The notes below the pieces were generated by a model, which worked only from the letters and a program-made list of their open reading frames with translations, ran no database searches and had not been told where the DNA came from. Of a DNA stretch of 54,288 bases, positions 1 through 29,170 are shown in pieces. Within the stretch, counting starts at the first letter, position 1. Each line of letters begins with the position of its first letter. Location: assembly GCA_043819555.1 (NCBI GenBank), contig JBDREQ010000024.1, forward strand, positions 1 to 54,288, read 5' to 3'. This stretch comes from Candidatus Zixiibacteriota bacterium (GTDB lineage: Bacteria; Zixibacteria; MSB-5A5; GN15; JAAZOE01). The position numbers and the translations under genes are program-made.

Positions 1-1713
1 TTCGCCGTTGGCGATGGTACGCGAACAGTACATGTCAGGGTAATGGATCGGGCTGGAAATGAAGCCAATGGTTCCGCCAGTATAATTCTCGACCGTGAGA
101 AACCAACTGGTGTTCTGGAAATTGTAGGTGATCCCGCTTGCGGCGCGGCCGCCGGATATACCTGCTCACAGACCAATAATATTCTTAATGTCACCGGTAT
201 TTCCGCTGACGCGGTACAGGTTAGATATCGCAACTGCGCTCCTTCCATGCAGACAGCATGGATGACCATAACTCCCACAAGTGATTCCTATAGCCCCTGG
301 ACATTGCATAATGCGGTTAATGGAACCAAGTGTGTGGAGATGCAACTGAAAGACGATGCCGGTAATGTATCGGCATGGATTTCAGATGATGTTATCCTTG
401 ACACTTCGCCACCGCTCTGGTCGTCAATGGGAGGCCCGACATTCACCGCGGTTCCGACCGAAGCTAACGGCAGCAAGAATGGCTGGCCGGCGAGTGTTGA
501 TCTGGAATGGTCGGCGCATACGAATGCTCAGATGTATGGAATAAACTGGCAGCGGACGAACGATTACCCGCAATATAATGACGTTCTTCCGACCTATCCG
601 CCAACCATTATTTCCGACTTTATGGGCGCTCATGACATTACCGGATTAGAGCACACTTTTGTTGCCACAGATATGCTTCCGGATATCTATTACTTCAGCC
701 TCTTCGTCAGAGACATGGCTGGAAACTGGAGTACTGATTATCTGACAGTCAAAGGTCAAAACTACTTTGGCGCTGACTTCAACACTGATGGTGAAATTGA
801 ATTTTCAGAATTCGTCACCATGGCCAATGCTTTCTATGCTCTTGAGGCCAAGACAGGTGTCTGGAATGATACTACCGATATCGGTCCGACATCGACCGGT
901 GATTACCTGGGTTATACTACGGTTGACGGTAAGATCGATTTTGATGACTTCCTGATCTTCCTCTTTACATTCGATGCTATGGCTGCCGACAAGAGAATCG
1001 GTGGCCAGCCAGTGCTGAAACCAACTGTTGGAGATGTCACCGTTTCGGCTGAAATTCCTCAGGAATTCAAAGCCGGTGATGATGTCTATGCCGTGATTCG
1101 CGTCACCGAACCCGCATCGGTCAAGGCTCTCAGCCTGACAATGACCTATGATACGGATTTATTGGAAGCGATCTCTATTGAATCCGGTGAGATGTTTAAT
1201 AACGACCGGGCAGTTTTGATTAACCAGATTAATGGTTCCACATTTAATATTGATGGCGCCATATTTGGTCGGGATAACCATTTTGAATCATCCGAAATCG
1301 CGGTTGTCAAATTCCGCGCCAAGCAGGATGGCAGCTTCGAATTCTCAGATCCCGCAATGGATTTGAGAGACTTCGATAATAATCACATCGACGTTGCCTT
1401 TAGCTCGGTTTACTCTTCGGGTGCGTTACCTGAAGTATTCTCGATATCTCAAAACTATCCTAACCCGTTTAACCCAACAACCAGTATTGATTTGGCTCTT
1501 GCTAATTCCACCGAATGGCGAGTTGAAATATTCAATATTGTTGGGCAATCGGTTATGACTTTCTCTGGTAATGACGGTCCCGGCGTGGTTAACATAACCT
1601 GGGATGGCTGCGACCATAATGGTGAAAAGGTTGCTTCCGGTGTTTACTTCTATCGGGCCATCGCGAATAACGACGCTTTTGTCAAGACACAGAAAATGGT
1701 TTTGATGAAGTAA
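1..1713 (+). CDS. 5'-truncated large secreted protein: Ig-like repeats, dockerin-like duplicated Ca-binding motif, cohesin-like domain, FlgD-Ig/T9SS type A-like C-terminal sorting domain
   Basis: Frame is open from base 1 (FAVGDGTRTVHVRVMDRAGN), so the start lies outside the window. Ig-end motifs DxAGN occur three times. Paired motifs ADFNTDGEIEFSEF / DGKIDFDDF. Cohesin-like segment 'KAGDDVYAVIRV..VKALSLTMTYDTDLL..IAVVKFRAK'. C-terminus QNYPNPFNPTTSI...WDG...SGVYFYR...KMVLMK. Confidence 0.85.
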   Translation, partial: FAVGDGTRTVHVRVMDRAGNEANGSASIILDREKPTGVLEIVGDPACGAAAGYTCSQTNNILNVTGISADAVQVRYRNCAPSMQTAWMTITPTSDSYSPWTLHNAVNGTKCVEMQLKDDAGNVSAWISDDVILDTSPPLWSSMGGPTFTAVPTEANGSKNGWPASVDLEWSAHTNAQMYGINWQRTNDYPQYNDVLPTYPPTIISDFMGAHDITGLEHTFVATDMLPDIYYFSLFVRDMAGNWSTDYLTVKGQNYFGADFNTDGEIEFSEFVTMANAFYALEAKTGVWNDTTDIGPTSTGDYLGYTTVDGKIDFDDFLIFLFTFDAMAADKRIGGQPVLKPTVGDVTVSAEIPQEFKAGDDVYAVIRVTEPASVKALSLTMTYDTDLLEAISIESGEMFNNDRAVLINQINGSTFNIDGAIFGRDNHFESSEIAVVKFRAKQDGSFEFSDPAMDLRDFDNNHIDVAFSSVYSSGALPEVFSISQNYPNPFNPTTSIDLALANSTEWRVEIFNIVGQSVMTFSGNDGPGVVNITWDGCDHNGEKVASGVYFYRAIANNDAFVKTQKMVLMK

Positions 1714-1756
1714 GTAATTCACATAATTGATCAAAGCCTTGATGAGGGGTTTTGAA

Positions 1757-1802
1757 GCGGGTGAAGCGGTACGGCACAGAAAAAGCCGTACCGCTTCGCC
1801 GC
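1757..1802 (+). other. Strong intergenic stem-loop without U-tract
   Basis: GAAGCGGTACGGC (1763-1775) is the exact reverse complement of GCCGTACCGCTTC (1785-1797); 9-nt loop; no poly-T follows on the + strand. Confidence 0.7.
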
Positions 1803-1850
1803 AAAATTGGGAAAGAATTGACTACTTTTTTGGTTTCTGGAGGAAAGACA

Positions 1851-4205
1851 ATGTTAACAAAGAAATTTCTGATTATTGTCCCAATTGTTCTTTTACTGGG
1901 GACAATTATGTGGGCGAGCGGGGATGTTGCGGCTCAATCATTATATCTGGCGCCCGATTCAGTCAAAATCTCAAGCGGTCAGTCAGAAACATTTGATATC
2001 GAACTTTGGGCCGATGATGCGGTATCAGGAATGAACCTTTATACCGTATATATAAATTTCAATAAAGAACTCGTAGAGTTATCTTATCTGGCCGATACAA
2101 CCTTTTGGATTTGCTCGGTTTTTGATGTCGATACTACCTGCCTTGACTCATTTTGCACCGATTGGATATATGATTCAATACCCACCGATTCACTCTGCTT
2201 ATCGTATTCAGAAGATTCAACTTGCGTTGATTCTTTGTATTTCGAGTGGTTGGTCGATTCATTATGCATTGATTCAATTTTTATAACTGAAATCTATGAC
2301 TCTACCTGTATGGATTCAGTTTTTCTTGAATGGTGGGTTGATTCTACGGCCATTGACTCGGCCTGTATTGAATGGCGAATAATTGATTATACCTGTATCG
2401 ATTCCATGTTCGTGGAATGGCAGATTGATTCTTCGGCGATAGATTCTCTTTTCATAGAATGGAATGTTGATTCGACTGGTATTGATTCAGCCTGTACGGA
2501 ATGGCAAGTTGATACATCCTGCATCGGAACCTGGACATGTATAGAATGGGATGGGGAGACATGTATAGACTCAGTCTGTTCAGAAGAACAGATTGATTCG
2601 ACATGTATCGGATTATGGGAATATACCGCCTGGGATTTGGATTCCACTTACATAAATGACTGGGTGATCATCGAATGGTTTGTGGATTCCATTTATGTTA
2701 ACGATTGGATATGCCTGGCATGGGATCCTGTTCAGGAATGTGTCGCCTGGGAAGCCTCAGCCTGGGATCTCGATTCAACTTTATATAATGATTGGCATTG
2801 TACCGTTTGGGATGTCGATACCACAGCCATTGATGCGTGGGAATGTACGGAGTATCAGGTAGACTCGACCTATTTTGACGGCTGGATTTGCCAGGCCTGG
2901 GATCCGGTGCATATCTATACTTGCCTGGAATGGCAATACACGGTCTGGAATGTTGATACGATATGCGCTGGGGGTTATGAATGCACCTCTGCGGCCTACG
3001 ATTCTACCTGTGTTGGTGATTCGATAGAATCAGATCCTTATGCATATAATTTGTTGAATGTTGATACGATTCAATATCCTGTAAATGAGGGACCATTAAT
3101 GCACCCGCCGAATGCCGTTACGGTTCCTTTTTATTCTCGGTTTAATGATGATACGACAAAGCTTCTTATCGAATCATTGATATTCTGGGAGCGTATCGCG
3201 GTCGACGGTCCGGGTCTTTTGGCAACTATCCATTTGAGAAGTATTGGCAATGGCATTCATCATATGACTATTGACTCGATTTATGTTTCTGATATTGATG
3301 GCGTTCAATTGCCGGTATCGGGAGAAGGGGATGTATTGCTTCTCAATGCCCCGCCTCAGGAATTTGACCTAATTGGGCCGATTAACCTGTTTGAATTGGA
3401 ATTCGAATTAGGAGATTCAATTAGTTTTTCGTGGGCCGAAGCGGTTTCGTATTATGAAATGGATCTGATTACATACGAGCTTCAAATTTCGGATACTCCT
3501 GATTTTACTCCCGGTCCGGATACAAAGGTTTTTTCCGGAATTATGGGCACCTCAATAAAACTCGACGCGACGTCGGATTTGGGTGTGGGGCAATTGTATT
3601 GGAGAGTAAAGGCGATAAGCAGCTTTGGCGCGGGACGATTTTCAACTCAAACCGACTGGTCGATTATATTAAGCAGCCTAATGCTCCCTCCCGGTGAATT
3701 CGATTTAGTAATTCCCGATAATGACAATTATATAAACACTATTGATGATGAGGATGAAGAGTTTAACTGGACCAAACCCGCCTCAAGTATTCCCGATGAT
3801 ACACTCATTTACTTATTACATATTTGGCCGGAGGAAGTCGATCCTGGGGTCCAGGAAATAATTCTCGATAATCTGGATACAAACTACGCCGCGATTCCAT
3901 TGACTAATTTTGACCTCTATGCAGCCTACAACTGGAGAACCAAATGCACTAATCGCGTGGGATTATCAACCTGGTCCAATCAAACCTTCCGGATGAATTT
4001 CTACCTGAGAGGCGACGCCAATGGAGACGGCCATGTAAATGTTGGTGATGCTGTTTTTATAATTAATAATGTTTTTAAAGGCGGGCCAGCGCCGGCCCGA
4101 ACTCAATATGGAGACGCAAACTGCGATGGGCAGCTCAATGTGGGGGACGCCGTCTATTTAATAAATCATGTGTTTAAGGGAGGCCCGGCGCCTTGCTCGA
4201 GTTAA
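1851..4205 (+). CDS. Secreted protein: cohesin-like domain split by a Cys/Trp/Asp-Ser repeat insert, two Fn3/Ig-like domains, C-terminal type I dockerin
   Basis: ATG 1851 follows GGAGG (1839-1843). Signal peptide MLTKKFLIIVPIVLLLGTIMWASG. 14-15-aa repeats at ~2091-3020. Two 'PPxEFDL..FxW..Y.L.I..Y.WR.K' domains. C-terminal duplicated GDANxDGxxNVGDAVxxINxVFKGGPAP. Confidence 0.85.
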   Translation: MLTKKFLIIVPIVLLLGTIMWASGDVAAQSLYLAPDSVKISSGQSETFDIELWADDAVSGMNLYTVYINFNKELVELSYLADTTFWICSVFDVDTTCLDSFCTDWIYDSIPTDSLCLSYSEDSTCVDSLYFEWLVDSLCIDSIFITEIYDSTCMDSVFLEWWVDSTAIDSACIEWRIIDYTCIDSMFVEWQIDSSAIDSLFIEWNVDSTGIDSACTEWQVDTSCIGTWTCIEWDGETCIDSVCSEEQIDSTCIGLWEYTAWDLDSTYINDWVIIEWFVDSIYVNDWICLAWDPVQECVAWEASAWDLDSTLYNDWHCTVWDVDTTAIDAWECTEYQVDSTYFDGWICQAWDPVHIYTCLEWQYTVWNVDTICAGGYECTSAAYDSTCVGDSIESDPYAYNLLNVDTIQYPVNEGPLMHPPNAVTVPFYSRFNDDTTKLLIESLIFWERIAVDGPGLLATIHLRSIGNGIHHMTIDSIYVSDIDGVQLPVSGEGDVLLLNAPPQEFDLIGPINLFELEFELGDSISFSWAEAVSYYEMDLITYELQISDTPDFTPGPDTKVFSGIMGTSIKLDATSDLGVGQLYWRVKAISSFGAGRFSTQTDWSIILSSLMLPPGEFDLVIPDNDNYINTIDDEDEEFNWTKPASSIPDDTLIYLLHIWPEEVDPGVQEIILDNLDTNYAAIPLTNFDLYAAYNWRTKCTNRVGLSTWSNQTFRMNFYLRGDANGDGHVNVGDAVFIINNVFKGGPAPARTQYGDANCDGQLNVGDAVYLINHVFKGGPAPCSS
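2091..3020 (+). repeat. Degenerate 42-45-nt (14-15 aa) coding tandem repeat, about 22 units in two mirrored halves
   Basis: First-half units resemble DSTCIDSxxxEWxV (14 aa); second-half units resemble DSTYxNDWxCxxWDV (15 aa); the halves are joined by CIEWDGETC. Confidence 0.85.
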
Positions 4206-4276
4206 CACTTTGCAAAATTAGGGATTAACGTCCCTAACCCGCCCCTCGCAATTCCTGGTTTTGTCTTTCCCCAGGA

Positions 4277-4326
4277 AAGCCCCTTTCGGCACCGAATCAC
4301 CATTCGGTGCCAGAGGGGCCTTTTTA
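4277..4326 (+). terminator. Rho-independent terminator of the cohesin/dockerin gene pair
   Basis: GCCCCT-ttc-GGCACCGAAT-cacc-ATTCGGTGCC-ag-AGGGGC followed by a T-run. Confidence 0.8.
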
Positions 4327-4474
4327 AAATATCGGGCATTTTTCCATCAAAATTAGTCGGTTTGGCAATAAACTTTGTAATTTAATCTGCCGAATTTATA
4401 ATATAAGGATTATTGGAAAACCGCCAAAGCGTTGTAAAATAAAGGTTCTATATATTTATGCGCTAATAAGAACC

Positions 4475-4503
4475 TTGACAGAATCGAGTTTCGATGTTAA
4501 AAT
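4475..4503 (+). promoter_or_regulatory. Near-consensus sigma70 promoter with extended -10
   Basis: TTGACA-17 nt-TAAAAT, with TG one base upstream of the -10 box. Confidence 0.7.
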
Positions 4504-4570
4504 GGCAATACGATCCTGAAAATTTGACGGCATGCATGGGGTTTCAATACTTCCTAATGACGTTCCCAGG

Positions 4571-4714
4571 TTAGGTGAGAGACCTCCGCATGCCTTTAAT
4601 AAAGTATGGATAAGTATATTCAATCGTCAAAAGCTCGACAACATTCCTAAAATCATCAAATTCCATTAAAAAAACATCCGGATCAAAATAATGACAGATA
4701 TTGATAATGTTCAT
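4571..4714 (-). CDS. Candidate 47-aa small protein (absent from the ORF track)
   Basis: Manual translation MNIINICHYFDPDVFLMEFDDFRNVVELLTIEYTYPYFIKGMRRSLT*; GAGGA lies 12 nt upstream of the ATG; it fills an otherwise empty intergenic gap. Confidence 0.4.
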   Translation of the reverse strand: MNIINICHYFDPDVFLMEFDDFRNVVELLTIEYTYPYFIKGMRRSLT

Positions 4715-4799
4715 TTTATGGCCCCGTCCTCGATTATGCGCTCTACCTGAAAAATTACGGTCGCCGAAATCAAAACATGATTATTCCAATTTTATGTTC

Positions 4800-4813
4800 T
4801 TGATTTAAGTCAA
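4800..4813. promoter_or_regulatory. FNR/Crp-family-like box upstream of the porin-cytochrome genes
   Basis: TTGAT-TTAA-GTCAA versus consensus TTGAT-N4-ATCAA (1 mismatch). Confidence 0.4.
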
Positions 4814-4909
4814 TTACAGAAATTGAAGTTTTTTGTTGATTGGAGACAAATATAGTATTCATTATCAAAGATATGAAACAGAAAATTGAAGCGAATAGAG
4901 CTACGATTT

Positions 4910-6125
4910 ATGAATAGAGTTTTACCCATATTCAAGTTTTTAATATTGATATTTATATCCTTTTTTCCTTCCTCAATCGATTGCCGCGATGGAATTCAAT
5001 GGCAGTTTTTCAGCGGATTTATATAATTGGGAGTCAGGCGATCAGGAGCATTTGCAATCTTATTTTTCACTTAAATCGAATCTTACGGCTTGGAAATCCG
5101 GACTAACAAAAAGTGTTTCACTTCATTCCTATTTCCGCTGGAGAACGGATTTGGCAGATAAATCCGAAAATGATCCACAGATATTCGTATATGATACATA
5201 CATGAGGCTAAAAAGTATAGCTCCTCATACGACGATGTATATTGGACGCCAGTTTGTATATTCGTCGGCGGGCAGTCTTCATTTAGATGGCGTTCGAGGC
5301 TCTATTTCATTTCAAAAACTTGATCTTGAATTCTTCGGCGGCAGCTCCGTTAGCCGTATTAATCCTGAAAAGATTCGTTCGTTTTCCGATTTTTCTGCGT
5401 TCGGCGGCCGTTTGTACTATCAGCCTCGGTTGACTACACGGCTGGGGATAGGGTGGATTTTGCGTGAAACCGATAATCAAGTTGACTATCATCGATTAGG
5501 TTTTGATATCACTCACGCAATTCGGAACCTGGCGATACTTTCACGCGCCTCCATGAATCCGGCAACTCTGCAATTAAGCGAGGTTTTGTTGCGAGCGCGG
5601 ATTAATTTATCACAATGGTATTTTTCCGGAGAATATACGACAAGAGAACCAAGCGTCTCTTATAATTCAATATTTTCATTGATAGATTTAAATCGATACC
5701 GGGAAATTAGATTTGAAGCCGTCCGAAAGCTCACGTCGATTATTACGGCTTATGGTACTATCCGGACTGACATAAATCCCATTGAAAGTTCATGGACCGG
5801 TCAATTGGGGATACGCACGCGTTTTGCATCCGTTTCGTGGGTTCATCAAAACGGATATGGCGGCGATTCTGAAGGGATTCGCGGAAATGCCCTGCTTACT
5901 TATGGAAAAAGCTGGTCTTTTTATGGAATTATTAATCTAAGCCGGTATCGAGTACAGCAAGAGCAAATTGATAAAAGCGATTCCTATTCAACAATGGTGG
6001 GTTTCAGAAAGAGTTTTCAAAACAATATTATGGTCGGTATGGAGTGGCAGTATTTGCGAAACGCAATTCAATCTTATGATTCGAGATTTCGCTTGAGAAT
6101 TTCCAAAGGATTTTCAAATAAATAA
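4910..6125 (+). CDS. Outer-membrane beta-barrel, putative porin of a porin-cytochrome complex; signal peptide separated by an apparent +1 frameshift
   Basis: ORF 4989-6125 shows alternating amphipathic beta-strands, a GRQF motif and a terminal strand RLRISKGF. A signal-peptide-like frame from ATG 4910 joins it if one base (e.g. a T of T6 at 4961-4966) is removed. Confidence 0.7.
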
Positions 6126-6136
6126 GTGTGGGTAAG

Positions 6137-7201
6137 ATGCCAATTAGAAATTTACAAGTATTTTTCCTTTTTCTCCTGAGTTTTGGGGTCATTTATGTCT
6201 TTGCCAAACCGTCCCCTTATGAATTGACTGTTTCCGAGAGCGACATTCAATTTTCTCATAAATTACATGTTGGTGAAAACGAAATCGAATGCGATGCATG
6301 CCATACTGCAATAAACACCAGTGAATTATCAGCCGATAAAAACTTTCCGGCCATGGATGATTGCGGTCAATGCCATGATATCGAAGGAGAGGACAACTGC
6401 GGCCAATGCCACAAAAATGCTGATGATCCCGGTGCTCTTGCAAATCCCGATCGCGAATTGGTATTTAATCACAAAAACCACCTGGATTTGGATATTGATT
6501 GCCGCCGCTGCCACATCAATATCGAATACAGTCCGCGTTCAAGACCGGAAAATATGCCGAAAATGAGTTTGTGCTTCGATTGTCATGACGGCTCGAAAGC
6601 CGAAAGAGAATGCGATTTGTGTCACAGCGACGCCCAGATACTTTCACAAATACATCCCGAACAATGGCTCCATGAACATGGCAATCGTGCCGCTTCGGAA
6701 CCAGATTGGTGCAATGACTGTCACGGGGGCCAGCATTTTTGTCTCGAATGCCATCGCGGAGATAATCTATCAGGTGAAATACATGATTTGAATTATTTTT
6801 TCACGCATGGACTCGACGCCAAAAGTAATGAAGAAGATTGTCGCCGCTGTCATGATAATAAATTGTTTTGCGTTGAATGCCATGAGAAAAACCAGCGAAT
6901 GCCGCTTCGGCATTCAACCCTGGCATGGCTGGATGAACATGGACGTTTTGCCCGCGAGGATGTGGAAAACTGCGCTGCCTGCCATGAATCAGATGATCCG
7001 ACTTGTGCCCGTGGGGGATGTCATAGTGATTTTGACGGGCTCCGGGGAACCGATACGCGGATTCATAATGCCGATGCGCCCCGATTCAATTTCGGGGGGA
7101 ACTGGCATGGAGATGAAAGCTATTTTTGCTATCAATGCCACATATCCACCGGCGTTCCGGGCAACGGCTTCTGTGGCTATTGCCATGGCGGTAAAGAATA
7201 G
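6137..7201 (+). CDS. Periplasmic multiheme c-type cytochrome (13 CxxCH + 1 CxxxxCH)
   Basis: Sec signal ending VFA; FSHKLH and FNHKNH c3/c7-type His motifs; manual heme-motif count. Start is ATG 6137 or GTG 6128. Confidence 0.92.
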   Translation: MPIRNLQVFFLFLLSFGVIYVFAKPSPYELTVSESDIQFSHKLHVGENEIECDACHTAINTSELSADKNFPAMDDCGQCHDIEGEDNCGQCHKNADDPGALANPDRELVFNHKNHLDLDIDCRRCHINIEYSPRSRPENMPKMSLCFDCHDGSKAERECDLCHSDAQILSQIHPEQWLHEHGNRAASEPDWCNDCHGGQHFCLECHRGDNLSGEIHDLNYFFTHGLDAKSNEEDCRRCHDNKLFCVECHEKNQRMPLRHSTLAWLDEHGRFAREDVENCAACHESDDPTCARGGCHSDFDGLRGTDTRIHNADAPRFNFGGNWHGDESYFCYQCHISTGVPGNGFCGYCHGGKE

Positions 7202-7206
7202 ATGAT

Positions 7207-9267
7207 ATGCCGGGAATAATTGGAAACAAGATGACTATCTGCCGATTAATATTGGCCGCGTTTGCAATAACTGTACTTATCGCGTTATTTGGATGCAGCA
7301 ATCAGAAAACAAAAAGTACTATGCCGCCTACGCATCCGGCTGAATGGATAAATCCCGATTCGGAAGATTTTCATGGTCATATCGTCAATTCGCGGGGATT
7401 CAAAAGCTGTCAGGTCTGTCATGGCATAGATCTAAATGGAGGGCAAAGCCATATTTCCTGTATCGAATGCCACTTGGAATCAAATGTATGTAATGCTTGT
7501 CATGGCGGGTACGATAACAAGTCCGGAGCTCCTCCGTATGGCCTGCATGGCGAAATATCCGATACTGCTCTGGCGGTTGGCGCACATACGGCCCATATAG
7601 ATTCATCATCCATTTCGGGAAGTGTCCCCTGCCAGACATGTCATTTGGTGCCGTTAGTGATTCTTGACGAGGCTCATTTCGACACCAGTTCCGCGATTCT
7701 TGATTCCATTGCCGAAATTACCTGGCAGGGACTGGAAACCGACGGATCGGCCGTTTGGGATCGCCAATTGAGAGAATGTTCCAAAACTTATTGCCACGGC
7801 AATTTTTATGGCGGAGATACGACTAATGTTCCAATCTGGACGGCGACCGACCAGGCTGTTTGCGGCTCGTGCCACGATATAGGCGATGATCCTGCTTTGC
7901 TTCTCGGGGCTCATAAGTTTCATGTGGACATAATGAGTTTTAATTGTTCTCAATGCCATGGCAGTGTTGTGGATGATGGCTTGAATATTACGGTAGCCTC
8001 GCTTCATGTGAACGGAATAATTAACACGGCGATAACCAATCCGGAAATTTGCGAAAGATGCCATGGGCCGAATGCCTCGCCATGTTCCGGTTGTCACGGC
8101 GGACTGGATAATGATACTGGCGCCCCGCCTTATGATTTGCGCGGCGATTCGGCGAATACTTTGTTAGGAGTAGGCGCCCATACCGCGCATCTGACCGACT
8201 CGCCCTTGGCGGCGGCTCTGGAATGCGGCACATGCCATATAGTCCCGGATGATATTATTGACTCGCTGCATCTTGATCTGGGAACCGAATCGATCGATTC
8301 AATTGCCGAAATAACCTGGAGTGGTCTGGCCGATAATGGGGAATCAATCTGGGATAGAAATGCCGCAGAATGTTCCAATTCTTATTGCCACGGCAATTTC
8401 ATCGGTGGAAATGTTGCCAATACTCCCGTTTGGACTGCCGTCAATCAGGCCGAGTGCGGCACATGCCATGACGATGGTTCAGCTCCTTTGAATCTTTCGT
8501 CAGTACATTATTTTCATGTCGGCACGGCAGCCATCAGATGTTCATTATGTCACAGCGAAGTAATTGATAATCAAAAAGAAATAGTATCCAATCAACTCCA
8601 CGTCAATGGCATTAAGAATTGGGATGAAAATTCCTGCGATGATTGCCATGAACCGTCTGGCTCAAGATGCGTTATCTGTCACGGCGGACTTGATAATCAA
8701 TCCGGCGCTCCGCCATATGACATTGATGGCGAATCGGCAGCCAGCCTGATTAGCGTCGGGGCTCATACCGCCCACATAGATGGCAATTTGATTTCAGACG
8801 GCATTGATTGTGATGAATGCCATGTTGTGCCAGTGTTTGCTCTTGCTGTCGGCCATCTTGATTCCGACGGAATTCCCGATATTGATTTTGGACCATTGGC
8901 AGGATCTTCATCAACATGGAATAGAAATACCAGGCTCTGTTCCGATTCTTACTGTCATGGAAATTTCTCAGGCGGATACTTCAATAATACTCCTGACTGG
9001 ACCGGAGGTGAAGTTGAAGCGGGTTGCGGCTCGTGTCATGACGATGGTACAAATCCGCGAAATCTTTCCGGCAGACATGATGACCATGTTGCTGAAGGTA
9101 TTGAATGTTATCGATGCCATGCTTCAACGGTCAACGTAAATATGTCAATCACCGGTCTCGGTCAGCATGTCAATGGCTCAATCGAAATTGTTTTTTCAAG
9201 CGGCAGCGGGACTTTTTCTGGCGGTCGGTGCAACAACGTCGGCTGTCACGACTCTGAAGACTGGTAA
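7207..9267 (+). CDS. Lipoprotein multiheme cytochrome of the Geobacter CxxxxCH...CxxCH type (16 CxxCH + 4 CxxxxCH), three internal repeats
   Basis: Lipobox LFG-C; CSxxYCHG...W...CGxCH modules; three copies of CHGGxDNxxGAPPYxxxG...VGAHTAH starting at 7489, 8083 and 8668. Confidence 0.92.
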   Translation: MPGIIGNKMTICRLILAAFAITVLIALFGCSNQKTKSTMPPTHPAEWINPDSEDFHGHIVNSRGFKSCQVCHGIDLNGGQSHISCIECHLESNVCNACHGGYDNKSGAPPYGLHGEISDTALAVGAHTAHIDSSSISGSVPCQTCHLVPLVILDEAHFDTSSAILDSIAEITWQGLETDGSAVWDRQLRECSKTYCHGNFYGGDTTNVPIWTATDQAVCGSCHDIGDDPALLLGAHKFHVDIMSFNCSQCHGSVVDDGLNITVASLHVNGIINTAITNPEICERCHGPNASPCSGCHGGLDNDTGAPPYDLRGDSANTLLGVGAHTAHLTDSPLAAALECGTCHIVPDDIIDSLHLDLGTESIDSIAEITWSGLADNGESIWDRNAAECSNSYCHGNFIGGNVANTPVWTAVNQAECGTCHDDGSAPLNLSSVHYFHVGTAAIRCSLCHSEVIDNQKEIVSNQLHVNGIKNWDENSCDDCHEPSGSRCVICHGGLDNQSGAPPYDIDGESAASLISVGAHTAHIDGNLISDGIDCDECHVVPVFALAVGHLDSDGIPDIDFGPLAGSSSTWNRNTRLCSDSYCHGNFSGGYFNNTPDWTGGEVEAGCGSCHDDGTNPRNLSGRHDDHVAEGIECYRCHASTVNVNMSITGLGQHVNGSIEIVFSSGSGTFSGGRCNNVGCHDSEDW

Positions 9268-16945: not shown

Positions 16946-17191
16946 GGAGTCATTATATTGTAGAGTTGAATTTATTGGGAAAAATCGCTTGACTCCAGGG
17001 CGTGTTTTGTTGTATTTTTGATTTCTGCCTATCCGTGTAAATAAGCGGATGCGTGGCATATGTTAATTAGGGTTGAGATTGGAAAGGTTTGGGTATAGGA
17101 TTTGAAGATTGATAATAAATCTCGAATCAAATTTATCCCTCACATAAAAACAAATCGCATTGACACTTATCCCAGTGAGGAGGGTCTCTGT

Positions 17192-20100
17192 ATGTCGAGC
17201 CGTGGTACAAAACCAATTCTTTGGGTTTTTATGGTATTCCTGATTACTGTTCTTATGGCGTCTTCAATATATTGTGCGTCAGTGGGCCGTATTAAAGGAA
17301 CTGTAACTGACGAAAAAACCGGAGAGCCGTTGTACGGTGTTTCCATTCAAATCAAAGGCACTAATAGCGGCGCCAAAACTGATATGGATGGGAACTTCGT
17401 TATTTTATCGGTTCCGCCCGGTACTTACACCTTATCATTTTCATCAGTGGGTTATCAAAGCATTGATTTGACTGATGTGGAAGTCAGTACTGACCAGACT
17501 ACCGAGAGGAATCAGCAGCTTAAAGAATCAGTTCTTGAAACTGGTCAGGTTACAACTGTAACTGGCAGGAGAAAAGGGATTGATTTTAACCAAACCGGGA
17601 CGGTTTCGGTTAAAACGCAAGAAGCCATTCAGCAAGCGCCCGTACAGACGGTTGATGATTTGCTGGCCCGCGAAACGGGAATCACCGTTGATCAGGAGGG
17701 GAAATTGCATATTCGCGGCGGCCGCGCCGGCGAAACTAACTATCTTGTTGACGGCGTTAGCTACTCAGACCCTCTTGGAGGACGAGCTCCAGTTGATGCC
17801 GGCATCAATATTTCGTCATCGGCGGTTTTGGAGCTGAAGGTTATTAAAGATGGCTTTGATCCCGAATATGGCGAGGCTCTCTCGGGCGTTGTGACGATCA
17901 CTTCCCCGGAAGGTTCATCCCAAAAAACTCGCTCGCGTGTACAGTTTTATACCGACGATTTCGGCAGCAAAGACCTCAATAAGTATTCCGAAAATTACGA
18001 TATCCTTGAGTTTATCATGAGCGGCCCCGACCCTTTATTAACCAGCCGCATTTTACCGGCCATCGGGATAAATTATTTCGAGGATAAATCGTTTACATTC
18101 TATATGTACAGTCGGGCCTATAAAACCGATTCACGTTTGGCATATTGGAAATACAATACTCCCGGCACCCAGAAGGCTTATCCGGACTATAGTATTTTAG
18201 GACTTGACATACCGGAAAGACAGCAAAACATATATAATCTCGATTTTACTCTAGCATACGATCCAACGAGCAATATGCACGTTAAGGGTCTTTATAAGGG
18301 TACCTGGAGAAAATATACTAATTTCTCATGGGTACATCGCTATACTCCAGCCACGGCGGCTGTCAGCACCCAGAATACCAAAACCTTTTCGCTGCAAATG
18401 AAACAGGTTCTTTCAAAATCAACCGATTACGAGATAAATCTATCCTACTTTGGAACCGATTACATTCAAAAACCGGGCGACCCCAATCATCCGGGCGAGG
18501 GACTTGATCCCGATCAGTTTTTATTCACCGATGAATATGAGACTTACGATGATTTGAATGCAAATAATCAGTTTGACAGCTATGAACCGTTTTTGAATAT
18601 TTTTCCCGATTCGGTCAGACAGGGAACGATATATATACCCAACAGAAATGCAACCGATATCTTATTTTCAACAGACGATCAAATCGGTGGATTTTGGCAG
18701 GCCGAATTTGATCTGAATAACAATGGAATTATTGACGGTTATGAAGGTGAGCCGTATGTCGATATGAACGGCAACGGTATTTATGATATTGGTGATCGCC
18801 TCACAAAAGATGTAAACGGCAATCGCACTTATGATGAGATATATCGCGACGTTACTTCACCAACGGCGACAACTCGCAGCGAACCTTATATTGACGGTGA
18901 CTCGTGCCTTGGTGAGAAATTTATCGACATTAATCGAAATGGTATCTATGACCTTGGCATAGATAGATTTGTTACGGCTCTTGACCCGGCAATTAATATG
19001 GACCTTAACCGGAATAACCGATACGATGGTCCTAATGATCTCTGGGAGCCGGGCATTCCTTATATTGATTATAATGGGAATGGCATCTACGATCTTCCAA
19101 ATAATCGCTATGATCCAGGAGAACCATTTGTTGACCTAAATAAAAATGGAAAGCACGATTTGGGCGGAGATAATAATACCGCCTTTCTGAATTATGGATT
19201 TTTGCAGTCGGGTTCCTCAAATGAATGGGCCCATGAGAAAGTCGATAGATATACGGCCAAGGGTAACTTCAAAAAAGCAATCGGACGAGCCCACGAAATA
19301 AAAGCCGGTTTCGAATTTCGTGATGAAAAAGTAGGTGTATCGGTTATCGAAGGATTGCAGAGGAGAAACGACGATACTCTCGACACCAATCCGTATACTG
19401 GCCGCGGCCGCGTTAGAGACTTTTATTCTCGCACCCCCAAAGTTTTCGTTCTATATTTCCGTGATAAGATTGAGTATGGTTCGTTAGTCGCTTCGCTGGG
19501 AATGCGCGCCGATTTATTCTTCCAGTCCGATTTGAAGGGCACGCCTACAATTCAGGATCAAACCGGTCACCACATTCAGGATATTCGCAATAAGTTTTCA
19601 CCGCGAGTTTCAATAAACTACCCGATTTCTGAAAGAGCCATGGTACGCTTTAATTATGGCCACTTCTACGAACTTGCCAACTATGATCGCATGTTCAGAA
19701 GTGCCAATCCCTTCCAGAGCGGCAACGTGCCGGTAATTGGCAATCCAAATCTGGATTATACGAAAACTGTAAATTATACTTTTGGCGTTAATTACGCCTT
19801 TACCGACGAGTACTCAATTAAACTCTCCGGTTTTTATAAGGATTACTTTGATATAGTTGCCACATCGTCTTATGAACGCTCCGGTATAACGCTGTTTCAA
19901 TACTACGACAACACCGATTATGCCCGAGTTCGTGGATTCGAAATGGAACTGGGCCGAGAAGCGGCCCGCTTTGTAAATGGTATTCTCAGCTATGAATATT
20001 CCTTCGCATATGGAAAATCGTCATCTGATTCAGAGAATTATCAGCGTCTGGTGGCAGGCGATGATATCTCGATTGATGAAAATCCTTTAAATTGGGATAT

Positions 20101-20554
20101 TCGACATCGTGTTGGCCTCTGGCTCCAATTGTATTTCACAAATCGTGATCACCCCAAGCTATTCGGGATAGGCATACCAAATGATTGGGATATGTCGGTT
20201 TATTGGCGGTTCCAGAGCGGCTCTCCGTACACTCCGTCCCGTTCCTTCCCGAATATGTTCCTGGATGTTGGCGAAAGTCCTCTAACTAATTCAATGCGTA
20301 TGCCTTCGACTTCGAATACGGATATCAAGTTCCGTAAGCGGTTCCGTATTTCAGGCATGCAATATACATTTGAAGCCGAAGTAAAAAATCTTTTCGATAA
20401 TGAGAATATCGCATACGTGAGCAGCTCTACCGGCCGTCCCGACACCAATAATAATCAAAGCGGTATCATCGGCGGAGGGACTGAGTATGACGCAAATCCC
20501 GGTAATTGGGCACGCGGGCGTCAAATTGTACTGGGCTTTGGAGTTCAATTCTAA
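17192..20554 (+). CDS. TonB-dependent receptor with N-terminal carboxypeptidase-regulatory-like domain and Ca-binding repeat insert
   Basis: ATG 17192 after GAGGAGG; G.I.G.VTD..TGEPL domain; plug HIRGGRAGE..YLVDG; FSPRVS, GNPNL, RGFE; C-terminal Phe. Confidence 0.9.
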   Translation: MSSRGTKPILWVFMVFLITVLMASSIYCASVGRIKGTVTDEKTGEPLYGVSIQIKGTNSGAKTDMDGNFVILSVPPGTYTLSFSSVGYQSIDLTDVEVSTDQTTERNQQLKESVLETGQVTTVTGRRKGIDFNQTGTVSVKTQEAIQQAPVQTVDDLLARETGITVDQEGKLHIRGGRAGETNYLVDGVSYSDPLGGRAPVDAGINISSSAVLELKVIKDGFDPEYGEALSGVVTITSPEGSSQKTRSRVQFYTDDFGSKDLNKYSENYDILEFIMSGPDPLLTSRILPAIGINYFEDKSFTFYMYSRAYKTDSRLAYWKYNTPGTQKAYPDYSILGLDIPERQQNIYNLDFTLAYDPTSNMHVKGLYKGTWRKYTNFSWVHRYTPATAAVSTQNTKTFSLQMKQVLSKSTDYEINLSYFGTDYIQKPGDPNHPGEGLDPDQFLFTDEYETYDDLNANNQFDSYEPFLNIFPDSVRQGTIYIPNRNATDILFSTDDQIGGFWQAEFDLNNNGIIDGYEGEPYVDMNGNGIYDIGDRLTKDVNGNRTYDEIYRDVTSPTATTRSEPYIDGDSCLGEKFIDINRNGIYDLGIDRFVTALDPAINMDLNRNNRYDGPNDLWEPGIPYIDYNGNGIYDLPNNRYDPGEPFVDLNKNGKHDLGGDNNTAFLNYGFLQSGSSNEWAHEKVDRYTAKGNFKKAIGRAHEIKAGFEFRDEKVGVSVIEGLQRRNDDTLDTNPYTGRGRVRDFYSRTPKVFVLYFRDKIEYGSLVASLGMRADLFFQSDLKGTPTIQDQTGHHIQDIRNKFSPRVSINYPISERAMVRFNYGHFYELANYDRMFRSANPFQSGNVPVIGNPNLDYTKTVNYTFGVNYAFTDEYSIKLSGFYKDYFDIVATSSYERSGITLFQYYDNTDYARVRGFEMELGREAARFVNGILSYEYSFAYGKSSSDSENYQRLVAGDDISIDENPLNWDIRHRVGLWLQLYFTNRDHPKLFGIGIPNDWDMSVYWRFQSGSPYTPSRSFPNMFLDVGESPLTNSMRMPSTSNTDIKFRKRFRISGMQYTFEAEVKNLFDNENIAYVSSSTGRPDTNNNQSGIIGGGTEYDANPGNWARGRQIVLGFGVQF

Positions 20555-20597
20555 TTATGAAAAAGAATCTGCCGTTTGATATAGAAGCAATGGGAGA

Positions 20598-21563
20598 ATG
20601 CAGATGAAAGTTGAAAGAAAAATATCGGCATATAAACTTACCCTATTATGCTTTGTGGTAATGTTAGCGATCTATTTGCCGGCTGATGTTTACGGCCAGG
20701 CAAAGGTGGGTACCGCTGGGGCTAAATTCCTTGATATCGGAGTATCGGCCAGGGCAATGGGGATGGGCGAGGCTTATTCAGCTATCGCCAATGATGTTTC
20801 GGCCATTTATTACAATCCGGCCGGTTTGACTCAGATGTTTTCCCGGGAGGCAATGTTTACCCGGATAGATTATCCCGCTGGAATAACTTATGATTTCATG
20901 GCCGTGGCTTTCCCGGTTGAAATGATATCGGGAGTATTGGGATTCGGTTTTTATACTCTGAATTCAGGGGAAATACCATATACGACCTATGCTAATCCGG
21001 ATGGTACGGGAGAAATGTTTTTCGCCAATGATTATGCAGCGACGCTTACTTACGCCCGAAGTCTTACAGAGCATTTTTCACTGGGCATAACATTTAAGAT
21101 GCTGGGTGAATACTATGACAATGAATCCGCAAATGGCTGGGCGGCCGATGTGGGAACGCTGTATGATACTGGTTATCGAGGATTCAAAATTGCCATGAGT
21201 ATTGTAAATTTCGGCCCGGATATGACAATGATTGATCAATCATATCCTGTACCGATTAATTTCAAGTTTGGCAGTTCATTCAATTTTATTGAGGATCCGG
21301 ATCATTTGGCGGTATTTGCCCTTGAGGGAGCTCATCCTTCGGATAATTTGGAGCAGTACAATGCCGGTGTGGAATACTGGTATCTCGAGAAATTCTCCCT
21401 CAGAATCGGAAATAGATTCAATTATGACTCGGACGGACTAACTTTTGGCGGCGGTCTGAAATGGCCGCTGGGTGAAACCAGCGAATTAAGAATCGATTAC
21501 AGTTACCAGGATATGCGCTTTCTGCGAGAGATTCATAGATTTTCGTTTTCGATGGCCTTTTAA
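20598..21563 (+). CDS. PorV/PorQ-family (FadL-like) outer-membrane barrel
   Basis: GTAGAKFLDIGVSARAMGMGEA...A..YNPAGL; C-terminal HRFSFSMAF. Confidence 0.85.
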   Translation: MQMKVERKISAYKLTLLCFVVMLAIYLPADVYGQAKVGTAGAKFLDIGVSARAMGMGEAYSAIANDVSAIYYNPAGLTQMFSREAMFTRIDYPAGITYDFMAVAFPVEMISGVLGFGFYTLNSGEIPYTTYANPDGTGEMFFANDYAATLTYARSLTEHFSLGITFKMLGEYYDNESANGWAADVGTLYDTGYRGFKIAMSIVNFGPDMTMIDQSYPVPINFKFGSSFNFIEDPDHLAVFALEGAHPSDNLEQYNAGVEYWYLEKFSLRIGNRFNYDSDGLTFGGGLKWPLGETSELRIDYSYQDMRFLREIHRFSFSMAF

Positions 21564-21600
21564 GGAGTAAAGCATGTTTAGAAATTCTGGAGGATATAAA

Positions 21601-23706
21601 ATGTCTGCGATTCGTCTGCCGATTATCTTGGGCCTGGCCGCGATTGTCCTGGCATTGATAATTAATATCGGATGTTCACCCGATCGGACCGGAACGGCCA
21701 CACCAAATTCGGCGCCGCAAGTATTTATAGTAAATACTCCACCCGATAGCGCCCAATTCTCGCGTAACCCGGAACTAAACTGGTACGCGACCGATATAGA
21801 TGGATACATCGCATTCTTCCGTTTTGCGGTTATTATTGATACCAACTTAATCCTGAATGGCCAATTGGTTGCGCCGGAAATTTTCATTGAGCAAGCGACT
21901 GATGCCGATTTTGGATGGGATACTTTGGAGGTTACCCTTGATCGTCCGCAATCAACAGCTACAATCAGGCTTTACGGAGATACTCTTGATCCCGTCAATG
22001 TTTTCACCAAGCAGTATTTCTTTGTACAGGCGGAAGATGATCAGGGCGCTTTGTCTGAAATCCAGTACCGGATGTATTCGCGAAACAACAATTATCCTAA
22101 TACACATATAGGTGGAGGTACTACCTTCATTAATGCCATTGATGCCAATTCCCCAGCCCCCGGAGTTCGCATGTCATGGTGGGGCGCCGATTCAACCGAC
22201 TGGGGTCGAGCCGATCCGCCGCTCGAATATGAATGGCGGCTATATGGTCCGTTTGACGTGAACGATGATGTGATCGTTAATTTGGTCGAGGAAAACTGTA
22301 CATATGATCCGACCACCAATAGTTACATCAATTGTGAGGAAGTCCATGTCCTGGATTTAACGACAATTCCCGATACTATCTATGTCAATGTCGGAACCGC
22401 GCAAAATCCTCAGTATATCGGTAAAGCGCAGCCCGTAATCAGATCGAGAGGTCCCAATTACGCAATCGATAAATCCGACGTTTGGGTCACTGATCGGGAA
22501 ACAAGACTATATAATGTTTTCGAAGGATTAGATCTGGCCCTTAGTAATAGATTTAAGTTCATCTTCTGGGTCCGATGCCGGGATGACGGTTTTGTCCCTG
22601 ATCCATCTCCTTCATTCGGTCAGTTTTACCTATATGAAGCGAAATTTGAACGTAACGTTCTATTATTTGATGAAAGCGGATATACTTCTACCGATGGCCG
22701 CTGGCACCCTAAAGCAATGGATACGACCAAAGCCGTTTATTACAACCTAATACAAAATGCGGGCTTCACTAGTTTTGATACATTGCAGTCTGGAAAAGAC
22801 TTTTTCAATAGGAGTGCTTATGGTGGTCCGACGTTGAATTATATTGGCGTTAAGAAGCCAAACCTTGTGGATTTATTATCACACAAAATTATCGTCTATA
22901 ATGCTGATTATGCATCCGGCGGGCTCGATGAAAGCGGTGCCGGTGCACTCAATGGAAACGGCGGATTCGGGATCTATTTTGCTCTCGATATGGGGGCGAG
23001 TGGGGTTGTCTTTGCCCGAAATATCGGCAATGTTCCTGAAGGTGAAAGTGAACCTTATGCCCGTTATGAAATGAGTCTCAATTTTCGACAGCGTTTTGGG
23101 ATCATTGCTACGAATATAGAACCATGGCTTTATTATGTTGTAAGCCGGGACTACATTATGAATCCATTGTTTACAGAGGAATTTATTGGTGTCTATTCTA
23201 ATCATGGTGATTATCCGAGTATTGATTTAAGTTATGGTGAAGGATCTCTGCAGGATAAGCGCTATCTCAGATGGCTATTTAGCCCTAATTATATTTTGGA
23301 CGGTTCGCCTGAAATTGGTGTTTGCGAAAAGACGCAATATGCCGCTCCTCTTTATCTTTATCTGTCAAAATATGGTGATGAGTCCAGATTTCACGGCAAA
23401 GTTTGCGCAGTTCGTCAGCAAATCGGCGATATGAGAACGGCCGCGTTTTTGTTTACGCCTTTGGCAATGGATCCCGAACCCATGCAGGAAACCTTTAGCA
23501 CTACTATGGATTGGCTTTATGAGAAATTCGCTGCCGATGAATCAGCGACAAGCCAAAGTTCTTCCGGACCTCAATCATCATATTCCGACATTGCCGAGCG
23601 ACGCGAACGGATCAATCAATTCTTGTATTATCTTGATAATTTCGCGACCCCGGAAGAGAGAGAGATGTATGGGGTTAATATCAGGCCGGTGGTTGTCAAG
23701 CAGTAG
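21601..23706 (+). CDS. Large hypothetical lipoprotein (Ig-like domains plus C-terminal alpha/beta domain)
   Basis: ATG 21601 after GGAGG; lipobox NIG-C; NxxP..W...D.DG and F.V...DD.G Ig-type motifs twice. Confidence 0.75.
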   Translation: MSAIRLPIILGLAAIVLALIINIGCSPDRTGTATPNSAPQVFIVNTPPDSAQFSRNPELNWYATDIDGYIAFFRFAVIIDTNLILNGQLVAPEIFIEQATDADFGWDTLEVTLDRPQSTATIRLYGDTLDPVNVFTKQYFFVQAEDDQGALSEIQYRMYSRNNNYPNTHIGGGTTFINAIDANSPAPGVRMSWWGADSTDWGRADPPLEYEWRLYGPFDVNDDVIVNLVEENCTYDPTTNSYINCEEVHVLDLTTIPDTIYVNVGTAQNPQYIGKAQPVIRSRGPNYAIDKSDVWVTDRETRLYNVFEGLDLALSNRFKFIFWVRCRDDGFVPDPSPSFGQFYLYEAKFERNVLLFDESGYTSTDGRWHPKAMDTTKAVYYNLIQNAGFTSFDTLQSGKDFFNRSAYGGPTLNYIGVKKPNLVDLLSHKIIVYNADYASGGLDESGAGALNGNGGFGIYFALDMGASGVVFARNIGNVPEGESEPYARYEMSLNFRQRFGIIATNIEPWLYYVVSRDYIMNPLFTEEFIGVYSNHGDYPSIDLSYGEGSLQDKRYLRWLFSPNYILDGSPEIGVCEKTQYAAPLYLYLSKYGDESRFHGKVCAVRQQIGDMRTAAFLFTPLAMDPEPMQETFSTTMDWLYEKFAADESATSQSSSGPQSSYSDIAERRERINQFLYYLDNFATPEEREMYGVNIRPVVVKQ

Positions 23707-23729
23707 TTCCTGTCAATAAAAGTAACAAC

Positions 23730-23757
23730 AAAAAGCCCGCTTTGGAGCGGGCTTTTT
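23730..23757. terminator. Bidirectional intrinsic terminator between convergent genes
   Basis: AAAAA-GCCCGCT-ttgg-AGCGGGC-TTTTT. Confidence 0.88.
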
Positions 23758-23772
23758 ATTTAACCACTTTGA

Positions 23773-25896: not shown

Positions 25897-26128
25897 CAAA
25901 GAAGTATAATAACACCTCCAAAGATTCAGCAAGGATTAAACATGATCCTATATGCAATATCCATCATTTATGAAAAACTTTGCAGAACCAGGGCAGTTTC
26001 AGACCAACCGTACCCATAATTCATTCACTCTGGTTAACTCGTTGTCGTACAATTAAATTGATTGGCAAGCGTTTAATTCTTGCACAGATATCCACATGGC
26101 AAATCCCATAAATGCACTCAAAAATCAA

Positions 26129-26144
26129 TGGCATATCAATTGCA
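26129..26144 (+). promoter_or_regulatory. sigma54 (-24/-12) promoter upstream of the protease pair
   Basis: TGGCATATCAATTGCA matches TGGCAC-N5-TTGCW with exact GG-N10-GC spacing, about 40 nt upstream of a GGAGG-preceded ATG. Confidence 0.65.
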
Positions 26145-26182
26145 CGAACACGAGTGGAACCACTTTTTGAGGAGGCAAGAAG

Positions 26183-29101: not shown

Positions 29102-29170
29102 ACTTGAAAAATAAATCAGATATTTTATCTTTAGGATTGATTGAAATACATGAAAGGTACTGGTGATAGA

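Follow-up and report, generated by a model that had tools for sequence, protein, structure and literature searches.

Contig JBDREQ010000024.1 of a Candidatus Zixiibacteriota bacterium (assembly GCA_043819555.1) carries, within the 54,288-nucleotide stretch that we analyzed (positions 1 to 54,288 of the forward strand, hereafter the window), a gene whose product contains a long, cysteine-rich insert in a cohesin-like domain. The only long frame over this site is an open reading frame (ORF) at 1752/1851-4205 (+), of which the longest version opens at a TTG codon at 1752; the ATG at 1851 yields a typical signal peptide, and the ortholog P0002 (784 aa, 84% identity) shares this start methionine. 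Taken from 1851 to 4205, the gene encodes a protein of 784 aa, here called P0001, and all of the features described in this paragraph lie on the + strand. The signal peptide (aa 1-29, MLTKK...DVAAQ; 1851-1937) was read from the sequence and includes a helix at residues 4-22 in the AlphaFold2 (AF2) model. It is followed by the N-terminal part of a predicted cohesin fold (aa 30-81; 1938-2093), comprising strands 1-3 and the first half of strand 4, and then by the insert, which parses into an outgoing strand (aa 82-230; 2094-2540), a tip loop (C230-IEWDGET-C238; 2538-2564) at the place equivalent to the turn in the AF2 model of the homolog P0007, and a returning strand (aa 238-404; 2562-3062), the C-terminal end of which was placed by alignment to the insert-less homolog P0019. 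The C-terminal part of the cohesin fold (aa 405-500, VNEGPLM...VLLLN; 3063-3350), assigned like the N-terminal part from alignments and from structural comparison with VIA-align (VIA), precedes two FN3-like beta-sandwich domains (about aa 501-719; 3351-4007) and a C-terminal type I dockerin (4011-4202) with two conserved cysteines (C758 and C782).

The insert is organized as a mirror of cysteines. An earlier reading of this DNA (the original prediction) had proposed a giant disulfide-stapled beta-hairpin at nt 2091-3020, which corresponds to aa 81-390, turning at CIEWDGETC (nt 2538-2564, aa 230-238) and carrying 12 cysteines on either side of the turn; when recomputed, the coordinates, those of the proposed turn included, and the cysteine counts were correct. 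P0001 has 27 cysteines in total, 24 of them in the insert: 12 are outgoing (88, 97, 102, 116, 125, 139, 153, 172, 182, 215, 224 and 230) and 12 are returning (238, 243, 252, 288, 297, 317, 332, 347, 358, 372, 378 and 387). The proposed parsing into 11 outgoing units, mostly of 14 aa, and about 11 returning units, mostly of 15 aa, also held, the consensus being D-S-T-C-x-D-S-x-x-x-E-W-x-V for the outgoing unit and D-S-T-x-x-N-D-W-x-C-x-x-W-x-V for the returning one. When the cysteines are nested, the first with the last, the sums of the paired positions (i+j) are 475, 475, 474, 474, 472, 471, 470, 469, 470, 467, 467 and 468. In a folded display of the insert, C97 faces C378, C102 faces C372, C182 faces C288 and C215 faces C252, while the sole Cys-free outgoing unit (193-206) lies opposite the sole Cys-free returning unit (264-278). 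All of the example pairs that had been proposed, as well as the facing Cys-free units, were reproduced in this display, in which the facing of non-Cys residues (F/Y and so on) was noticed by eye. The insert is also strongly acidic, as had been claimed: its 331 aa include 45 Asp, 21 Glu, no Lys, one Arg and 26 Trp, giving a net charge of -65.

The outgoing blocks starting at 150, 164, 179 and 193 are 59-62% identical and resemble a within-strand tandem duplication, and the returning strand has a distinct 15-residue subtype; it therefore seems that each strand expanded on its own, although the two still match. An inverted DNA repeat or a DNA inversion cannot yield a mirrored protein, and no meaningful inverted repeat was found in the DNA-level search: Tandem Repeats Finder gave no rows, and what a repeat finder returned was limited to direct repeats that have diverged (71% over 79 nt) and a single, trivial inverted pair of 20 nt.

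The mirror is conserved among homologs. Ten full-length insert-bearing homologs were found, one of them titled a Zixibacteria dockerin protein by its source, so that the family has 11 members with P0001; the proteins are 637-784 aa long, and their inserts fall into four length classes (185, 207-208, 260 and 331 aa) with net charges of -35 to -65. The number of insert cysteines is even in 11/11 (18, 22 or 24), and the lists of inter-Cys gaps are palindromic within one residue, as in P0007, where they read 9,14,5,10,14,13,14,5 / 9 / 5,14,14,14,9,5,14,9. The nested i+j sums spread over 1-3 residues, or 8 in P0001 and P0002. The tip loop, of 7-8 residues, is kept in all 11 members and takes the form C-[IT]-E-[WY]-[DN]-x3-C in the homologs. 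In shuffles of all inter-Cys gaps (200,000 per protein), sums as constant as those observed arose with p values of 5e-6 to 1.8e-4 per protein, and about 1e-4 for P0001. When the outgoing half was held fixed and the order of the returning gaps was shuffled, the values were 3.9e-4 for P0001, 8e-5 for P0004, 2.5e-3 for P0007, 2.3e-3 for P0003 and 1.4e-3 for P0006. These p values are not independent, since the proteins are related.

The original prediction had further suggested asking of homologs whether the repeat numbers of the two halves vary together and whether gains and losses of cysteines are paired, and both were observed. The halves co-vary in the four length classes, with spans from the first to the innermost cysteine (outgoing/returning) of 71/74 in P0006, 83-84/84 in P0003 and P0007, 109/111 in P0004 and 142/149 in P0001. 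P0004 has one extra block per half, of 26 aa in the outgoing and 27 aa in the returning strand. Where an outgoing cysteine sits at position 9 of its unit rather than at position 4, as in two units of P0006 and in one extra unit of P0004, the facing unit has its cysteine at position 4 rather than 9, such switches always being matched on the partner unit, and the differences between the length classes are all paired across the halves. A separate candidate, that the extra blocks of P0004 are cross-strand copies of one another, was not demonstrated, since their identity of 59% is exceeded by that of another pair of blocks (61%).

The mirror pattern is kept at 40-48% identity, and the insert is under purifying selection, constrained like the globular domains. 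In a comparison with the ortholog from G151, a genome of the same genus (84% identity; dS about 1), the ratio of nonsynonymous to synonymous substitution rates (dN/dS) was 0.08 in the outgoing and 0.09 in the returning half, as against 0.07-0.12 for the cohesin, FN3 and dockerin parts, and all cysteine positions are identical between P0001 and this ortholog.

The flanks of the insert had been read as the two halves of one cohesin-like domain, and our comparisons bear this out. A profile search of 1.84 billion cluster representatives returned many homologs, 430-520 aa in length, whose match to the protein begins with the post-insert segment. The insert-less P0019 (431 aa; identity of 46% across 366 residues and 43% in the N-terminal 66) joins the flanks directly (...KTLLAVDSVIEGPLF...), and the insert junction falls inside a segment that is aligned to one strand of the insert-less homologs (LLAVD/SVIEG in P0019). 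Among eight insert-less or short-insert homologs, Pfam Cohesin (PF00963) was listed for four (16.2-24.5 bits), one of which, P0042, passed (24.5 versus a 24.1-bit cut-off); it was listed for none of the three insert-bearing proteins scanned (P0001 at E<=1, P0007 and P0004 at E<=0.1). A profile built from 20 insert-less homologs matched PDB cohesins weakly (4uyp_A with E 0.0037; 1g1k_A and 2vn5_A at about 0.1) and gave clear matches to PDB dockerins and FN3 domains. The same profile aligned with the Pfam-positive cohesin encoded immediately upstream of the gene (hhalign probability 88.9%, E 2.4e-6), the 99 aligned columns running across the junction. The strongest evidence is structural. In an exhaustive VIA search of 48,161 PDB representatives, the flanks of the P0007 AF2 model, which was built on a 26-row alignment and has a predicted local distance difference test score (pLDDT) of 73-87 in the flanks, superposed on 6kgc_A with a Z of 16.4 and a root-mean-square deviation of 2.4 Å over 136/144 residues, the model range 25..378 spanning the insert. 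Further cohesin matches were 2xdh_A (Z 16.0), 2vo8_A (15.9) and 1ohz_A (15.1), and the best 20 rows (Z 16.4-11.8) are cohesins by title except rank 18, a 'protein-protein interaction module'. The cohesin matches of this model thus indicate that the flanks form one cohesin around the insert; in the P0001 AF2 model the flanks have a pLDDT of only 50-70. By alignment and by model, then, the flanks are the two halves of one cohesin.

Beta-flaps, as described in the cited passages, are short excursions that interrupt strand 4 or strand 8 of type II and type III cohesins (PMC5934362, PMC5141474). In the P0007 AF2 model the junction follows the fourth strand, and the insertion site appears to equal the beta-flap site, at strand 4 on the edge of the sheet. 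P0035, P0036 and P0070 have short D[ST] inserts (about 10-35 aa), free of any Cys ladder, at the same cohesin site, and it is possible that such inserts represent evolutionary precursors of the long arm.

The remainder of P0001 is of more familiar kinds. In the Pfam scan the type I dockerin (PF00404, aa 721-774; 35.9 bits versus a 22.9-bit cut-off) was the sole family seen, and an NCBIfam scan of the protein gave no match. Two D-A-N-x-D-G-x-x-N-V-G-D segments are visible in the dockerin, and PDB dockerins matched the P0007 model with Z 10.8 and 10.2 in the VIA search. The FN3-like pair was assigned from profile matches, from VIA rows spanning residues 375-485 and 487-595 of the P0007 model and from a Foldseek comparison of the model with the PDB, the list of which was filled by tandem FN3 matches and was uninformative on the cohesin. 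Four other proteins, P0015-P0018 (3221-5222 aa), are giants in which the FN3-like pair found after the cohesin in the insert family recurs in 18-32 tandem copies.

Upstream of the gene lies the 3′ part of another (1..1713, +), whose ORF is 5′-truncated by the window and which encodes a Pfam-positive cohesin (nt 1057-1338) and a type IX secretion system (T9SS) C-terminal sorting domain (about nt 1456-1686). A protein of 1617-1710 aa is encoded directly upstream of the insert-bearing gene both in G151 and in G140, a genome from another genus of the family (1156-6009 of locus L018 and 1300-6432 of locus L019); in this conserved protein, a beta-helix/NosD region and Ig-like domains are combined with two cohesin stretches and a T9SS tail. 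The gene pair is kept in 3/3 insert-bearing genomes, and the downstream genes differ. It is likely that the upstream protein is the surface socket for the dockerin of the window protein. The genome that carries the window (3.35 Mb) has 13 cohesin matches, 8 of them over the cut-off, and 65 dockerin-like ORFs (71 raw matches), 58 with the domain at the C terminus and many with 2-6 conserved cysteines. Judged by this gene content, the T9SS-bearing bacterium has a large, non-cellulosomal cohesin-dockerin display system.

Two other regions of the window are worth recording. At 4989-9267, two multihaem cytochromes (Cytochrome_C7; Geobacter CxxxxCH motif) come after a 378-aa ORF that matches no Pfam family, and together these genes may form a porin-cytochrome module of the outer membrane that serves extracellular electron transfer. 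At 17102-31849, a TonB-dependent-receptor-like gene with CarboxypepD_reg is followed by a PorV-like gene and two T9SS-tailed proteases, one of the subtilase S8 type and one of the M6 immune-inhibitor-A type, and the arrangement looks like a T9SS cargo neighbourhood.

Since the two halves of the insert mirror each other cysteine for cysteine, one long, cross-linked, two-stranded arm is the most likely architecture. The explanation that we favour, and consider probable, is that of a hypertrophied strand-4 flap, in which two arrays of one repeat family run antiparallel, most likely joined by a nested disulfide ladder, to form a projecting arm on a protein that docks to its upstream neighbour. An overgrown loop would interrupt strand 4 of the cohesin beta-sandwich, and the outgoing and returning arrays, built from a single family of 14-15-residue repeats, would pair antiparallel over their full length. 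Every rung would contain a pseudo-dyad in which position 4 meets position 9-10, each site holding two cysteines or none; the 9-12 Cys pairs would most likely oxidize to nested cross-strand disulfides, and the 7-8-residue loop would close the tip. Units added to both strands would lengthen the arm. The product would be a stiff, protease-resistant, polyanionic and Trp-rich arm, no longer than about 24-50 nm and less than that if it kinks or coils, that juts from the edge of the cohesin, and the C-terminal dockerin would plug into a cohesin of the upstream T9SS-anchored beta-helix protein. More tentative, and to our mind somewhat less likely than not, is a free-standing beta-ribbon rod of 24-50 nm with 9-12 nested disulfides that grows by a unit per strand and acts as a polyanionic spike or molecular ruler.

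In the P0007 AF2 model, the insert forms strands at 84-121 and 131-173, a turn at 174-178 and strands at 179-223 and 232-268; the turn falls within the C170...C179 loop, and the strand breaks at 122-130 and 224-231 are matched. The model agrees with a hairpin, and we treat it as weak evidence. A complex prediction of residues 78-175 of P0007 against residues 176-290 scored 0.06-0.07 relative to a mark of 0.32 and counts neither for nor against such an arm.

A number of observations weigh against the favoured explanation or limit the shape that the arm could take. The pLDDT of the P0007 insert is low, at 35-47 over the length of the arm and 51-63 close to the tip, and in the P0001 model (11-row alignment) it is about 20, with a local hairpin at 165-176/181-192. 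Structure prediction, which the original prediction had put forward as a check, thus returned a giant hairpin for P0007 at pLDDT 35-63 and an unusable model of the P0001 insert. The rung spacings raise a further difficulty, as spacings of 5, 9 and 13 occur in every length class and are equal on both strands. In a regular antiparallel hairpin, cross-strand disulfides, which join non-hydrogen-bonded pairs, need an even spacing. The odd spacings therefore exclude a regular ribbon and call for kinks, which may keep the arm from being straight or from reaching its full extension; these kinks probably lie at the conserved Asp-Ser of unit positions 1-2 and 6-7. The antiparallel ribbon of the original prediction is thus supported as regards its antiparallel pairing, which agrees with the mirror, the co-variation of the halves and the P0007 hairpin, but not as regards regular ribbon geometry. 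Its length of 45-50 nm becomes, with such spacings, only an upper bound, and at 0.33 nm per residue the fully extended arms of the four classes would measure about 24, 28, 37 and 47-50 nm, which are likewise upper bounds. Hydrophobic residues are present on both faces of the insert, and a lone two-stranded ribbon would expose them. The insert is also not a general solution, since its form was found in 3/285 genomes of the phylum, three more matching the post-insert segment only (ORFs of 458-481 aa).

The remaining points of this kind concern cysteine chemistry. DsbA (PF01323), DsbB (PF02600), VKOR (PF07884) and Thioredoxin_4 (PF13462) gave no match in the 97%-complete genome, and control genomes gave matches for all four. 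A bias of exported-like ORFs towards even cysteine numbers was not seen among ORFs with cysteines (0.477, n=614, versus 0.463, n=1161, for cytoplasmic-like ORFs), in a test that is rough, as it used our own ORF calls and our own signal-peptide rule. The genome does encode a haem-copper oxidase (COX1, 519 bits) and a bd-type oxidase, and with terminal oxidases present, exposure to oxygen is plausible. Both Cys motifs are carried by 34/65 dockerin-like matches, which suggests, at the level of motifs, that secreted domains of this genome use Cys pairs. Taken together, the oxidases and the Cys-motif dockerins make oxidized Cys pairs in secreted domains plausible without Dsb.

The same gap in oxidative machinery, Dsb or VKOR, and the same lack of an even-Cys bias would also suit the hairpin with its cysteines reduced, as bis-thiolate metal sites or as four-Cys sites at two C-x4-C/C-x4-C rungs, which would make it a metal-binding or redox-active rod. 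Four cysteines do meet at two rungs per arm, Asp/Ser clusters are opposed at unit positions 6-7, and the multihaem cytochrome genes lie 2-5 kb downstream. However, most rungs would offer two thiols only, there is no conserved His, and the cytochrome genes are not adjacent to the insert-bearing gene in G140 or G151; moreover, the terminal oxidases suggest that the organism meets oxygen, and Cys-paired dockerins are common among its secreted proteins, so that we regard such a rod as unlikely. The odd rung spacings that speak against a regular ribbon could instead point to a compact repeat fold, either a beta-solenoid resembling that of the insect antifreeze proteins with their 12-residue repeats or a meander of short hairpins, with local, sequential disulfides and with the mirror as a side effect of the repeat lattice. 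The topology would permit sequential pairing, the consecutive gaps all being 5-36 residues, the 4/9 lattice of the 14-residue repeat is itself mirror-symmetric, and the hairpin in the P0001 AF2 model is local. Yet it is not the lattice alone but also its occupancy that is mirrored, and shuffling the order of one half destroys this (p 8e-5 to 2.5e-3). Runs with cysteines at position 4 only, such as outgoing units 4-6 of P0007, have no position-9 partner in the neighbouring unit, and in P0001, where one unit differs from the next in its Cys state, some cysteines would have no partner if the pairing were that of stacked coils. The matched indels of the two halves would be left unexplained and the P0007 model shows a global hairpin, and we hold a compact fold to be quite unlikely.

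The mirror rule would be satisfied just as well if the outgoing strand of one chain paired with the returning strand of another, in a domain swap whose dimers or filaments would cross-link a surface layer. The hydrophobic residues on both faces suggest further association, and a cohesin and a dockerin in one chain already imply assembly; against this, the tight, Cys-closed loop of 7-8 residues at the tip in 11/11 members favours an intramolecular turn, and AF2 folds the P0007 insert back on itself, which leaves intermolecular pairing very unlikely. Finally, the very low AF2 confidence and an extreme composition, with a net charge of -65, are what one might expect of an unstructured, acidic, low-complexity linker in which the Cys pattern is structurally meaningless. 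Such a linker is highly improbable given the dN/dS of 0.08-0.09 and the retention of all 24 cysteines in an ortholog at a dS of about 1, the persistence of the mirror at 40-48% identity, and the presence of 26 Trp and many other aromatic residues in the insert.

The insert is rare, and the claim of the original prediction that no described family has this architecture agrees with our searches. The insert belongs to no Pfam or NCBIfam family, phmmer against the PDB sequences gave no match at E<=10, and the P0007 insert had no feature match in the ESM Atlas, where the structural rows reached a TM score of 0.22-0.28 only and the Atlas's own model of P0007 has a predicted TM score of 0.38. The profile search found the insert in only 2 clusters among the 1.84 billion representatives, a word-index search with the family alignment returned the same 10 homologs again, and a search with the insert alone for further members gave no match. 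In the literature searched on disulfide ladders, beta-ribbon stalks and cystine-ladder hairpins, the titles and the opening parts of the abstracts describe no such arm, and the searched literature held no work joining Zixibacteria with dockerin or cohesin.

Several known systems share single features with the insert. The beta-flaps of cohesins share the host fold but, as the cited passages describe them, are short, smaller by a factor of tens, whereas the insert has 185-331 residues, repeats and 18-24 cysteines. In the ultralong CDR (complementarity-determining region) H3 of bovine antibodies, as presented in the cited passages, the stalk is a two-stranded beta-ribbon that extends far out from a beta-sandwich loop (PMC8602281, PMC10523490). 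That stalk, in the same passages, has about a dozen residues per strand, no ladder and a disulfide-rich knob; by this description, the arm would be 6-12 times longer, with its cysteines in the stalk and a small loop at its tip. As for cystine-ladder hairpin peptides such as theta-defensins, protegrin, tachyplesin and gomesin, these have 17-25 residues, are cationic and carry 2-3 disulfides at even spacing. Like them, the insert would have two antiparallel strands, a turn and, as predicted, nested cross-strand Cys pairs. Unlike them, it has 71-149 residues per strand, is acidic, has 9-12 rungs spaced 5, 9, 13 and 14, and lies within a domain, so that it departs from this class both in rung spacing and in not being a small cationic host-defence peptide.

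In the long, thin stalk of the streptococcal cell-surface protein antigen I/II (SpaP), two repeat arrays of one chain, which need to match in repeat number, run antiparallel, an alpha-helix wound with a polyproline helix, with a domain at the tip. The insert likewise has two repeat arrays of one chain in matching repeat numbers, but its arrays both belong to one beta-type repeat family, there is no tip domain, and Cys pairs form the rungs. An unrelated fold in the VIA search was 3opu, which we take to be the C-terminal domain of SpaP. The Tenebrio antifreeze protein is a beta-solenoid of Ser/Thr- and Cys-rich 12-residue repeats, with its cysteines at the same positions in consecutive coils. 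The insert shares with it the short Ser/Thr- and Cys-rich repeats (12-15 residues across both), but its adjacent units differ, having cysteines at position 4, at position 9, at both or at none, and it is the mirror unit that shows the complementary state. The insert can be described as a cohesin flap combined with a Cys-laddered hairpin, at an unprecedented scale and with a repeat organization; as a rod, it would be categorically new if experimentally confirmed.

The insert is a real, rare and lineage-specific structural novelty, and its composition and genomic context would be consistent with a role as a stiff polyanionic spacer or an adhesive spike. It provides a case of covariation in which four natural lengths follow one pairing rule and on which structure predictors largely fail. 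If our reading is correct, the arm would hold the longest known cross-strand Cys ladder by far, and no two-stranded arm known from one chain would exceed it in length. A repeat array would pair with a second array of the same repeat, giving a rod whose length evolves stepwise, which would interest both designers in need of stiff, thin, length-programmable spacers and structural biologists concerned with the stability of beta-ribbons. For the organism, the arm would be part of a cohesin-dockerin display system of an uncultured Gram-negative phylum, a system that the searched literature does not mention. The more tentative free-standing rod, carried on this surface assembly, would represent a new class of protein rods that are rigid and tunable in length.

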